Source of the DNA: Escherichia coli | GTDB lineage: Bacteria; Pseudomonadota; Gammaproteobacteria; Enterobacterales; Enterobacteriaceae | Direction: 5' to 3' (one strand) | Length of the DNA stretch: 64,000 nt | Assembly: GCF_041886205.1 (NCBI RefSeq) | Contig: NZ_CP169029.1 | Part shown: in pieces, positions 46,456 to 55,258 of the stretch | Position numbering within the stretch: the first letter of the stretch is position 1 | Layout of the letters: every line of letters begins with the position of its first letter | Made by a program: the position numbers and the translations under genes | Notes under the pieces: model-generated | The model's database searches: none | What the model saw: only the letters and a program-made list of their open reading frames with translations | What the model was told of the DNA's origin: nothing

Positions 46456-46841
46456 GACGTATCGCCTGATTTGCTACCCGTCATGACTGTGATTCCGCCA
46501 ACATCAACGGTAACACGCGGCATTCGGGATATTTCGTATGTCAAAGGTAACCGTTACCACTTTTCGCGCCTGGTTTTTTTAGTTTCACGACGAAAAAATG
46601 GTCTAAAACGTGATCAATTTAACACCTTGCTGATTGACCGTAAAGAAAGATGCGCTACATACAAGTGTAGCACCGTTTATTCTCTGTAAATTCCTTATTA
46701 CGACGGCGTGAAACGCCTGTCAGGATCCACTGCCAGACCTCATTTTACGGTTTGCGCAGGCGTCTACGTTTCACCACAACACTGACATCACTCTGGCAAG
46801 GATGTTAGGATGGACCACGGATGATAATGACGGTAACAAGC

Positions 46842-47783
46842 ATGTTAGACAATGTTTTAAGAATTGCCACACGCCAAAGCCCACTTGCACTCTGGCAGGC
46901 ACACTATGTCAAAGACAAGTTGATGGCGAGCCATCCGGGCCTGGTCGTTGAACTGGTACCGATGGTGACGCGCGGCGATGTGATTCTTGATACGCCGCTG
47001 GCGAAAGTAGGCGGAAAAGGCTTATTTGTAAAAGAGCTGGAAGTCGCGCTCCTCGAAAATCGCGCCGATATCGCCGTACACTCAATGAAAGATGTGCCGG
47101 TTGAATTCCCGCAAGGTCTGGGACTGGTCACTATTTGTGAGCGTGAAGATCCTCGCGATGCCTTTGTGTCCAATAACTATGACAGTCTGGATGCGTTACC
47201 GGCAGGCAGTATCGTCGGGACGTCCAGTTTACGTCGCCAGTGCCAACTGGCTGAACGCCGCCCGGATCTGATTATCCGCTCCCTGCGCGGCAACGTCGGC
47301 ACTCGCCTGAGTAAACTGGATAACGGCGAATACGATGCCATCATTCTTGCCGTAGCCGGACTAAAACGTTTAGGTCTGGAGTCCCGCATTCGCGCCGCGT
47401 TACCGCCCGAGATTTCTCTTCCGGCGGTAGGACAAGGTGCGGTCGGTATTGAATGCCGCCTTGATGATACACGCACTCGCGAGCTGCTTGCCGCGCTGAA
47501 TCACCACGAAACTGCACTGCGCGTTACCGCAGAACGCGCCATGAATACCCGTCTCGAAGGCGGATGTCAGGTGCCAATTGGTAGCTACGCCGAGCTTATT
47601 GATGGCGAAATCTGGCTGCGTGCGCTGGTCGGCGCGCCGGACGGTTCGCAGATTATTCGCGGTGAACGCCGCGGTGCGCCGCAAGATGCCGAACAAATGG
47701 GGATTTCGCTGGCAGAAGAGCTACTGAATAACGGCGCGCGCGAGATCCTCGCTGAAGTCTATAACGGAGACGCCCCGGCATGA
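46842..47783 (+). CDS. hemC: Porphobilinogen deaminase (hydroxymethylbilane synthase) HemC
   Basis: 313-aa product from [23 protein letters not shown]...; divergent from cyaA. Confidence 0.96.
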
Positions 47784-48541: not shown

Positions 48542-49741
48542 ATGACGGAACAAGAAAAAACCTCCGCCGTGGTTGAAGAGACCAGGGAGGCCGTGGACAC
48601 CACGTCACAACCTGTCGCAACAGAAAAAAAGAGTAAGAACAATACCGCATTGATTCTCAGCGCGGTGGCTATCGCTATTGCTCTGGCGGCGGGCGTCGGT
48701 TTGTATGGCTGGGGTAAACAACAGGCCGTCAATCAGACCGCCACCAGCGATGCCCTGGCTAACCAACTGACGGCATTGCAAAAAGCCCAGGAGAACCAAA
48801 AAGCCGAGCTGGAAGGCATTATCAAGCAACAGGCTACGCAGCTTGAACAGGCGAATCGTCAGCAAGAAACGCTGGCAAAACAGTTGTATGAAGTCCAACA
48901 AAAGGTCGCCACCATTTCCGGCAGCGATGCTAAAACCTGGCTGCTGGCTCAGGCCGATTTTCTGGTGAAACTCGCCGGACGGAAGCTGTGGAGCGATCAG
49001 GACGTCACGACCGCTGCAGCGTTGCTGAAAAGTGCAGACGCCAGCCTGGCGGATATGAATGACCCGAGTCTGATTACCATTCGTCGGGCAATTACCGATG
49101 ATATCGCCAGCCTTTCTGCAGTATCGCAGGTGGATTATGACGGCATCATCCTTAAGCTTAATCAGCTTTCAAATCAGGTAGATAACCTGCGTCTGGCCGA
49201 TAATGACAGCGATGGTTCGCCGATGGATTCCGACGGTGAAGAGCTTTCCAGTTCCATCAGCGAATGGCGTATCAATTTGCAAAAAAGCTGGCAGAACTTT
49301 ATGGACAACTTCATTACGATTCGCCGTCGTGATGACACCGCCGTACCGCTGTTAGCGCCAAATCAGGATATCTATCTGCGCGAAAATATTCGCTCTCGCC
49401 TGCTGGTCGCTGCACAAGCTGTACCGCGTCATCAGGAAGAGACTTATCGCCAGGCGCTGGAGAACGTCTCCACCTGGGTACGTGCTTACTACGATACTGA
49501 TGATGCCACCACCAAAGCATTCCTCGACGAGGTGGACCAGTTAAGCCAGCAAAATATCTCGATGGATCTTCCGGAAACCCTGCAAAGCCAGGCGATGCTG
49601 GAAAAACTGATGCAGACTCGCGTGCGTAACCTGCTGGCACAACCGGCAGCGGAGACAACGGAAGCTAAACCTGCACCTGCACCTGCACCTGCACCTGCAC
49701 CGCAAGCTGATACTCCGGCAGCCGCGCCGCAAGGAGAATAA
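48542..49741 (+). CDS. hemX: HemX membrane protein (putative uroporphyrinogen-III C-methyltransferase family)
   Basis: 399-aa [27 protein letters not shown]...; N-terminal TM segment, coiled coil, C-terminal (PA)n tract. Confidence 0.93.
49670..49699. repeat. Perfect (CCTGCA)x5 hexanucleotide tandem repeat inside hemX
   Basis: cctgcacctgcacctgcacctgcacctgca, encoding [10 protein letters not shown] near the HemX C-terminus. Confidence 0.9.
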
Positions 49742-49743
49742 CC

Positions 49744-50940
49744 ATGCTAAAAGTGTTATTGCTCTTTGTGTTGCTGATTGCGGGGATCGTGGTTGGCCCG
49801 ATGATTGCCGGTCATCAGGGTTATGTGCTGATCCAGACCGACAACTACAATATCGAAACCAGCGTCACGGGCCTCGCGATTATTTTGATTCTGGCGATGG
49901 TAGTACTGTTTGCCATTGAGTGGCTACTGCGGCGGATCTTCCGCACTGGCGCGCACACCCGTGGGTGGTTTGTCGGGCGTAAGCGTCGCCGTGCACGTAA
50001 GCAGACCGAACAGGCGCTGCTGAAACTGGCGGAAGGCGATTATCAGCAAGTTGAAAAGCTGATGGCGAAAAATGCCGATCACGCGGAACAACCGGTGGTG
50101 AACTATCTACTGGCTGCCGAAGCCGCGCAACAACGTGGTGATGAAGCACGCGCCAACCAACATCTGGAACGCGCAGCGGAGCTGGCCGGCAATGACACCA
50201 TTCCGGTAGAAATCACCCGTGTACGTCTGCAACTGGCCCGTAATGAAAACCATGCTGCACGCCACGGCGTGGATAAGCTGCTGGAAGTTACGCCACGCCA
50301 TCCGGAAGTATTACGTCTGGCAGAACAGGCGTATATCCGCACAGGTGCATGGAGTTCGCTGCTGGATATTATCCCATCAATGGCGAAAGCCCATGTTGGT
50401 GATGAAGAACATCGTGCAATGCTGGAACAACAGGCATGGATTGGCCTGATGGATCAGGCGCGTGCCGATAACGGTAGCGAAGGTTTGCGTAACTGGTGGA
50501 AAAACCAAAGCCGGAAAACGCGTCATCAGGTAGCGTTGCAGGTGGCAATGGCGGAACATCTTATTGAATGTGACGATCATGATACTGCCCAGCAAATTAT
50601 CATCGACGGCCTGAAACGCCAGTATGACGATCGTCTGCTGCTGCCGATTCCGCGTCTGAAAACCAATAACCCGGAACAGCTGGAAAAAGTGCTGCGCCAA
50701 CAGATCAAAAACGTCGGCGATCGCCCGCTGTTGTGGAGCACACTGGGTCAGTCGCTGATGAAGCACGGCGAATGGCAGGAAGCATCGCTCGCCTTCCGTG
50801 CAGCGCTGAAACAACGTCCGGACGCCTACGATTACGCATGGCTTGCCGACGCGCTGGACAGACTGCACAAGCCGGAAGAAGCCGCAGCGATGCGTCGCGA
50901 CGGTTTGATGTTAACGTTGCAGAATAACCCGCCACAGTAG
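49744..50940 (+). CDS. hemY: HemY protein (TPR-containing inner-membrane protein)
   Basis: 398-aa ORF MLKVLLLFVLLIAGIVVGPMIAGHQGYVLIQTDNY...; starts 2 nt after the hemX stop. Confidence 0.95.
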   Translation: MLKVLLLFVLLIAGIVVGPMIAGHQGYVLIQTDNYNIETSVTGLAIILILAMVVLFAIEWLLRRIFRTGAHTRGWFVGRKRRRARKQTEQALLKLAEGDYQQVEKLMAKNADHAEQPVVNYLLAAEAAQQRGDEARANQHLERAAELAGNDTIPVEITRVRLQLARNENHAARHGVDKLLEVTPRHPEVLRLAEQAYIRTGAWSSLLDIIPSMAKAHVGDEEHRAMLEQQAWIGLMDQARADNGSEGLRNWWKNQSRKTRHQVALQVAMAEHLIECDDHDTAQQIIIDGLKRQYDDRLLLPIPRLKTNNPEQLEKVLRQQIKNVGDRPLLWSTLGQSLMKHGEWQEASLAFRAALKQRPDAYDYAWLADALDRLHKPEEAAAMRRDGLMLTLQNNPPQ

Positions 50941-54821: not shown

Positions 54822-54898
54822 TGGTCGGCGAGAGAGGATTCGAACCTCCGACCCACTGGTCCCAAACCAGTTGCGCTACCAAGCTGCGCTACTCGCCG
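54822..54898 (-). tRNA. proM: tRNA-Pro (anticodon UGG)
   Basis: Reverse complement reads CGGCGAGTAGCGCAGCTTGGTAGCGCAACTGGTTTGGGACCAGTGGGTCGGAGGTTCGAATCCTCTCTCGCCGACCA. Confidence 0.97.
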
Positions 54899-54940
54899 AA
54901 ATACTGCTTTTTGAATTTTTAGTTCAATTCTTTAAAGTCG

Positions 54941-55027
54941 TGGTGCGAGGGGGGGGACTTGAACCCCCACGTCCGTAAGGACACTAACACCTGAAGCTAG
55001 CGCGTCTACCAATTCCGCCACCTTCGC
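54941..55027 (-). tRNA. leuT: tRNA-Leu (anticodon CAG)
   Basis: Reverse complement reads GCGAAGGTGGCGGAATTGGTAGACGCGCTAGCTTCAGGTGTTAGTGTCCTTACGGACGTGGGGGTTCAAGTCCCCCCCCTCGCACCA (87 nt, long variable arm). Confidence 0.97.
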
Positions 55028-55047
55028 ATTGTCACAACTTCTAATAA

Positions 55048-55124
55048 TGGGGTGGCTAATGGGATTCGAACCCACGACAACTGGAATCACAATCCAGGGC
55101 TCTACCAACTGAGCTATAGCCACC
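55048..55124 (-). tRNA. hisR: tRNA-His (anticodon GUG)
   Basis: Reverse complement reads GGTGGCTATAGCTCAGTTGGTAGAGCCCTGGATTGTGATTCCAGTTGTCGTGGGTTCGAATCCCATTAGCCACCCCA, including the extra 5' G. Confidence 0.97.
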
Positions 55125-55181
55125 ACTACAAATCTTGTTACGCGGTATTACTACCACCGCAGCTCAAGCGCCGGGACTAAA

Positions 55182-55258
<77 letters not shown>

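Follow-up and report, generated by a model that had tools for sequence, protein, structure and literature searches.

The hemX gene in the 64-kb stretch of Escherichia coli DNA analyzed here (hereafter, the window) carries a run of identical hexanucleotide units close to its 3' end, which raises the question of whether the number of these units changes among strains, by what process it does so, and what such changes would mean for the HemX protein and for hemY, the next gene downstream. The original prediction had placed a perfect in-frame (CCTGCA)5 array near the HemX C-terminus, and this was confirmed by the letters of the window: the array has zero mismatches and is flanked by A on the 5' side and by CC on the 3' side (Table 1). 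Tandem Repeats Finder reported it with a period of 6, 5.5 copies, 100% matches, and a score of 66, and it was the sole array of more than 3 copies across the 64 kb. The 30-mer of the array has a single exact occurrence in the window, and a search for it in 100 dinucleotide-preserving shuffles, with up to 3 mismatches allowed, gave 0 matches. The distance from the first nucleotide of hemX, (49670-48542)/3 = 376, indicates that the array is in frame, with the codons CCT GCA encoding a 10-residue Pro-Ala tract (P377-A386 of the 399 aa) that is followed by P387 (CCG); 13 residues lie between the tract and the stop codon.

Table 1. Positions of the array, the surrounding genes and primer sites in the window, and the corresponding Citrobacter gene ends.
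Feature	Position	Strand	Remarks
hemX CDS	48542..49741	+	399 aa; Pfam HemX domain at aa 130-363
EHC-1 forward primer site (GTGCGTAACCTGCTGGCACA)	49622..49641	+	0 mismatches
HemX C-terminal tail codons, aa 367-399	49640..49738	+	Predicted coil, Pro/Ala-rich, unconserved in the wider family
CVN014-R primer site (GCAGCRGGGACAACGGAAGC)	49646..49665	+	1 mismatch; unique in the window
(CCTGCA)5 microsatellite	49670..49699	+	Encodes HemX aa 377-386; Tandem Repeats Finder extent 49669-49701
EHC-1 reverse primer site (CGCGGCTGCCGGAGTATC)	49709..49726	-	0 mismatches
AAGGAG, likely hemY Shine-Dalgarno sequence	49731..49736	+	Within the last hemX codons CAA GGA GAA (QGE)
hemY CDS	49744..50940	+	HemY_N plus TPR; begins 2 nt past the hemX stop
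CVN014-F primer site (TCCCCGCAATCAGCAAMACAAAGA)	49763..49786	-	0 mismatches; unique in the window; inside the start of hemY
Citrobacter hemX 3' ends with arrays	L017 1440-1500; L019 1430-1491; L018 1440-1503		

The open reading frame that holds the array was identified as HemX (PF04375) with an E-value of 5e-108 and a score of 360.6 bits against the cut-off of 25.9, the match covering positions 2-235 of the 236 in the profile. The genes are arranged as hemC-hemD-hemX-hemY, beyond which lie an arylsulfatase gene and then a tRNA cluster. An AlphaFold2 model of HemX, built from a 58-sequence alignment and having a mean pLDDT of 81.7, indicated an all-helical, membrane-anchored protein, in which aa 1-35 are disordered, a helix extends over aa 36-128, and a confident helical body continues to aa 366 (pLDDT of 95-98 over aa 280-360). 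The remaining residues, 367-399, were modeled as coil, with mean pLDDT values of 62, 58, and 52 for the 10-residue blocks over aa 371-399. The Pro-Ala tract lies within this low-confidence coil tail, beyond the end of the Pfam HemX domain (aa 363). The start of the helix at aa 36-128 would be the membrane anchor, as read from its hydrophobic sequence, and the lysines of KKSKN (aa 29-33) before the hydrophobic segment suggest, by the positive-inside rule, that HemX is oriented N-in and C-out, so that the tail would be periplasmic. Among 129 representatives of the HemX family, which were defined as clusters at 50% identity, the tail past the last helix was free in length and composition, with a median Pro+Ala fraction of 0.13, and none of these representatives had tandem peptide repeats (at least 4 copies of a 2-6-aa unit).

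To return to the question of variation, a 151-bp query centered on the array was searched against the complete E. coli genomes. The query matched 5,425 of the 5,426 genomes and, therefore, the window is from an E. coli chromosome; the match spans differed in steps of 6 nt. One genome had no match and some had two matching places, and of the approximately 5,430 matching places, one was on a plasmid record. The array was found to range from 1 to 16 units among the complete genomes. To define the alleles at the level of bases, 16 hemX loci were fetched and the units were read base by base, which gave 1, 2, 3, 4, 5, 6, 7, 8, 9, 10, 11, and 16 units, with the single unit in XJ34 and the 16 units in O157:H7 ECP19-598. 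In all these loci, the array began at nucleotide 1129 of the CDS and was composed of perfect CCTGCA units, with the exception of a 1-nt deletion in isolate 23S01245-7. A synthetic 20-unit query, which placed the longest arrays at the top, gave spans corresponding to 16, 15, 14, 13, and 12 units; most of these were from O157:H7, and the alleles of 12-15 units were assigned from match spans. With a 1-unit query, single-unit genomes numbered at least four.

The length of hemX was exactly 1170+6n nt, without any other indel, in 14 of the 16 genomes read, the non-repeat part consisting of 1128 nt before the array and 42 nt after it. For every perfect allele in the range of 1-16 units, the open reading frame stayed open and the C-terminus was identical. 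These results support the expected gain and loss of hexamer units with the frame being kept, and an identical unit number in all strains was not what the counting across E. coli hemX revealed. The supposition that the K-12 protein is slightly shorter than 399 aa also proved right, as MG1655 has 2 units, a hemX CDS of 1182 nt, and a HemX of 393 aa. The further claim that length variation is confined to the tract held for the 14 genomes and needs to be qualified for the other two, which have a 9-nt deletion outside the repeat (strain N96) and the 1-nt deletion within the array (23S01245-7), respectively.

Strain N96 (L012, NZ_CM169999.1, hemX at 283-1461) carries a divergent allele of 392 aa, in which 9 nt directly upstream of the array are deleted, with the loss of TTE, and several synonymous differences are present nearby. 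This deletion was the sole non-repeat in-frame length change in the 16 genomes read. In isolate 23S01245-7 (L015, NZ_OZ197100.1, hemX at 233-1431), the deleted nucleotide is inside unit 2 (CCTGCACC-GCACCTGCA...), and the gene is annotated as a frameshifted pseudogene; this is possibly a real frameshift or else a sequencing or assembly error in the repeat. In addition, a metagenome protein of 485 aa at ENA (P0001) is a 98%-identical HemX in which approximately 86 residues of the C-terminal region are duplicated internally and the tract is interrupted (PAPAPAPTPAPAPAP), which represents either a tandem duplication or a repeat-seeded metagenome misassembly.

Because BLAST splits long gaps into joined pieces, so that identity bands give no exact counts, the allele spectrum was determined by systematic sampling instead of a full census, using two samples of 60 rows each, taken in even steps through the ranking of the 5,425 genomes. 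In total, 119 rows were counted, with one sampled row having no unit call and one genome being common to both samples. Most of the values were obtained from span length rather than base reading, by a rule that fits all 16 loci read, and the counts were 19 for 2 units, 5 for 3, 9 for 4, 18 for 5, 18 for 6, 12 for 7, 11 for 8, 8 for 9, 12 for 10, 3 for 11, 1 for 12, 2 for 13, and 1 for 15. The Nei diversity was about 0.89 and the top allele accounted for at most about 16% of the 119 sampled genomes, values that apply to the RefSeq complete genomes, a sample biased toward K-12 derivatives, O157:H7, and ST131. The 5-unit allele of the window was among the commonest in the two 60-row samples. K-12 laboratory derivatives in the two samples had 2 units throughout; the rate of slippage rises with copy number, and the constancy of 2 units in the K-12 lineage fits such dependence. 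The many HemX accessions and lengths (391-421 aa) in the E. coli annotation mostly reflect this repeat and not functional divergence.

The speed of the variation was evident from strains of the O157:H7 type. The array had 7, 16, 5, and 9 units in TX 265-1, ECP19-598, PV15-279, and strain 147, respectively, whereas these four strains had 0 differences over the 1170 non-repeat nucleotides of hemX. Since the genes are identical outside the repeat and yet have 5, 7, 9, and 16 units, the unit number outpaces point substitution by far. Additional strains labeled O157:H7 had spans for 8, 12, 13, and 15 units. These data bear directly on the possibility that the differences in copy number were not made in place and instead represent old alleles moved by homologous recombination, or assembly artifacts. 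It is true that E. coli recombines and that the alleles are distinguished by SNPs in their flanks (14-27 nt from the window sequence), and the 1-nt deletion inside the array of one assembly resembles a sequencing error. Both versions are, however, at odds with the identical flanks around 5, 7, 9, and 16 units in the O157:H7-type strains, and the further O157:H7-labeled strains point in the same direction. Artifacts are also opposed by the size of the arrays, which at 6-96 bp are far below sequencing-read length, and by independent PCR sizing in many laboratories, which shows the same variation, including that in ST131. Furthermore, the MLVA literature implies de novo changes of single units. 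We therefore regard an origin by recombination or artifact as extremely unlikely.

The typing literature is relevant in another respect, as the hemX array is the same as the MLVA loci CVN014 and EHC-1 and is, thus, already known as a locus. CVN014 is one of the loci of GECM-7/GECM-10, the generic E. coli MLVA scheme that later papers attribute to Lindstedt et al (2007), with an extension by Lobersli et al (2012), and its primers and size formula, (product-111)/6, are tabulated in PMC8143711. In the window, the CVN014 primers are convergent and flank the array, giving an amplicon of 141 bp (49646-49786); the formula, (141-111)/6 = 5, returns the same number of units as the count in the letters. 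With the same location and the same 6-bp unit, there is no difference between CVN014 and the hemX array at the DNA level. EHC-1, according to the S5 Table of PMC10062581, through which Izumiya et al (2010) is cited here, is a locus of the Japanese 17-locus MLVA for EHEC (O157/O26/O111). It differs from CVN014 in the primers only, which enclose the same array in a shorter amplicon (105 bp in the window).

The variability reported for these loci is in accordance with that in the genomes. CVN014 shows the largest variation in its scheme (PMC5217547), ranked first in polymorphism in non-O157 STEC, with 9 alleles of 4-15 units and D = 0.83 (PMC3519732), and has 2-11 units within ST131 (PMC3407997). 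High variability, including that within clones, was likewise found here, with 1-16 units overall and 5-16 units in O157:H7 with identical flanks. The medians of EHC-1 in O157 clades range from 5 to 12 units, in agreement with the 5-16 units in the O157:H7 genomes of this study. The array locus has served as a routine typing marker for EHEC and for E. coli in general from about 2007-2010 onward and, as a discovery, carries little weight. What is added here is the mapping of CVN014 and EHC-1 to the hemX codons for the Pro-Ala tail, an allele spectrum based on complete genomes, with 1-16 units and a diversity of about 0.89, and the presence of the same microsatellite at the orthologous position in Citrobacter. 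The open-access papers found here contain no statement that ties CVN014 or EHC-1 to hemX or to Pro-Ala coding.

A third typing locus, O157-19 (TR7, VNTR-19), was also considered, and its motif is one that we take to be the reverse complement of the CCTGCA array. The identity was rejected, as the window contains no site for the primers in the S5 Table of PMC10062581 at up to 3 mismatches, and an exact search with the initial 23 bases of the forward primer gave no hit in the 16 E. coli hemX loci. O157-19 of the PulseNet O157 MLVA likewise has a 6-bp repeat unit and serves in the typing of O157, but it is another locus.

The hemX genes of related genera were compared for the presence of the array. 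In Citrobacter, the HemX tails are Pro/Ala-rich and differ in length between close relatives. As a mildly unexpected result at the level of DNA, Citrobacter gillenii and C. rodentium have the same GCACCT/CCTGCA hexamer array, with 4 units, at the orthologous position of hemX. C. sedlakii has three copies of a 9-nt derivative, GCACCTGCC, at the 3' end of hemX, and the lengths of its HemX variants (394, 397, and 400 aa) imply that the number of 9-nt units ranges from 1 to 3. The Salmonella tails are also Pro/Ala-rich, and no array was present in the Salmonella hemX sequences compared. Because these Citrobacter orthologues carry the same hexamer array, the origin of the microsatellite goes back further than the genus Escherichia. 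No peptide repeats were present in the 129 family representatives; the array is specific to the Escherichia/Citrobacter lineage.

The array is also close to the start of hemY. The distance from the end of the array to the hemY start codon is 44 nt, and that from AAGGAG to the hemY ATG (49744) is 7 nt. The last hemX codons are, hence, probably constrained as the ribosome-binding site of hemY, and the overlap of the hemY Shine-Dalgarno sequence with those codons may be the reason that the C-terminal ...PQGE is conserved and the tract before it is not. When the single-stranded DNA of both strands and the RNA including the hemY start were folded, just weak hairpins based on TGCA were predicted; the repeat region had z-scores of -1.6 to -1.9, and an equally good fold was obtained for 7-15 of the 200 shuffles. 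The predicted folding gives no support to a structural or regulatory element at the array.

These findings need to be weighed with respect to adaptive tuning, in which the length of the Pro-Ala tract would determine how far the HemX tail reaches or how active it is, or the units would alter mRNA structure or ribosome flow into hemY, and diversifying selection would act on the unit number. Such tuning would be consistent with the perfect state of the array, the retention of the same hexamer array at the orthologous site in Citrobacter, the recurrence of Pro/Ala-rich HemX tails in Citrobacter and Salmonella, and the tight junction with hemY, with a gap of 2 nt and a Shine-Dalgarno sequence inside hemX. 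The loss of hemX also has a phenotype, since the deletion strain of the Keio collection, which was grown and assayed, showed reduced sensitivity to gentamicin (PMC12282077). As that deletion strain exists and could be grown and assayed, hemX is, at the same time, dispensable in K-12. A preferred length is, however, not apparent in the allele spectrum, which is broad and flat over the whole range of 1-16 units; K-12 and the other strains that have just 1 or 2 units are fully viable; the tail is unconserved across the wider HemX family; the predicted RNA and DNA structures are unremarkable, as described above; and a 6-nt unit is unable to turn the gene on or off. Therefore, adaptive tuning appears quite improbable. 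A selected and rapidly adjustable tract length, serving as a ruler that sets how far HemX reaches into the periplasm or as a modulator of translational coupling to hemY, is a still more doubtful proposal; if true, it would explain the persistence of the hexamer at the orthologous site in Escherichia and Citrobacter. The perfect state of the array and the orthologous hexamer in Citrobacter may, nevertheless, mean that a Pro/Ala tail of some length is selected.

Taken together, we consider, with a probability of about 0.88, that the array is a hypermutable, frame-preserving, slippage-driven, and near-neutral hexanucleotide VNTR at the 3' end of hemX, corresponding to CVN014/EHC-1. During replication, perfect CCTGCA units would misalign by whole units through slipped-strand mispairing, and each unit gained or lost would add or remove a Pro-Ala dipeptide in a C-terminal tail of HemX that is presumably under no structural constraint. 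The reading frame and the folded HemX domain would be unaffected, as would the last codons and the ribosome-binding site of hemY. Because these elements remain untouched, changes in unit number would be tolerated and build up as a near-neutral length polymorphism, and the length of the array is, thus, probably near-neutral.

This hypermutable VNTR can be compared with two known types of system. In the phase-variable contingency loci of Haemophilus, Neisseria, and Campylobacter, simple-sequence repeats switch genes on and off. The hemX array is similar to them in the presumed slipped-strand mispairing and in the high rate relative to point mutation. Contingency loci shift the reading frame or the promoter spacing, whereas the unit in hemX is 6 nt long and is located in an open reading frame, outside a promoter spacer. 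A step of the array, hence, changes 2 aa and does not switch expression, so that the array falls outside the contingency class of simple-sequence repeats. The second type is represented by the OmpA hinge and the Pro-rich spacer of TonB, which are Pro-Ala-rich flexible or extended linkers in envelope proteins. The HemX tract would resemble them as a low-complexity Pro/Ala segment of an envelope protein that is predicted to be non-globular; those linkers join two folded domains, whereas the HemX tract is in a terminal tail, with 13 residues after it.

With regard to the naming of HemX, the RefSeq product name (for example, at locus L001) is 'uroporphyrinogen-III C-methyltransferase'. An enzyme with this activity is expected to carry the TP_methylase catalytic domain, as in CysG and CobA. 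A Pfam scan of HemX for a methyltransferase domain found none, giving only the HemX profile and a sub-threshold match to Tweety, and Pfam labels the methyltransferase activity of HemX 'putative'. Judging from the domain content and the all-helical model, this name appears to be a misannotation of legacy origin. HemX has also been called a distant homologue of Mic60 without the mitofilin domain (bioRxiv 10.1101/2022.06.14.496148).

Several minor observations were made elsewhere in the window. The hemC open reading frame at 46821-47783 is 320 aa long from the ATG selected by the program. The start of K-12 HemC is presumably the downstream MLDNV..., which gives 313 aa, and the true start of hemC is probably at 46842. 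The hemC and hemD genes overlap by 4 nt (47780-47783). The segment 7207-7393 holds 1.9 copies of a 98-bp unit at 85% identity, and its GCCGGATGCGGCG/CTTATCCGGCCTAC motifs are of the kind that characterizes REP/BIME intergenic elements. Past the sulfatase gene, the minus strand carries a cluster of four tRNA genes at 54822-55258, Arg(CCG)-His(GTG)-Leu(CAG)-Pro(TGG), which we take to be the argX-hisR-leuT-proM operon of K-12.
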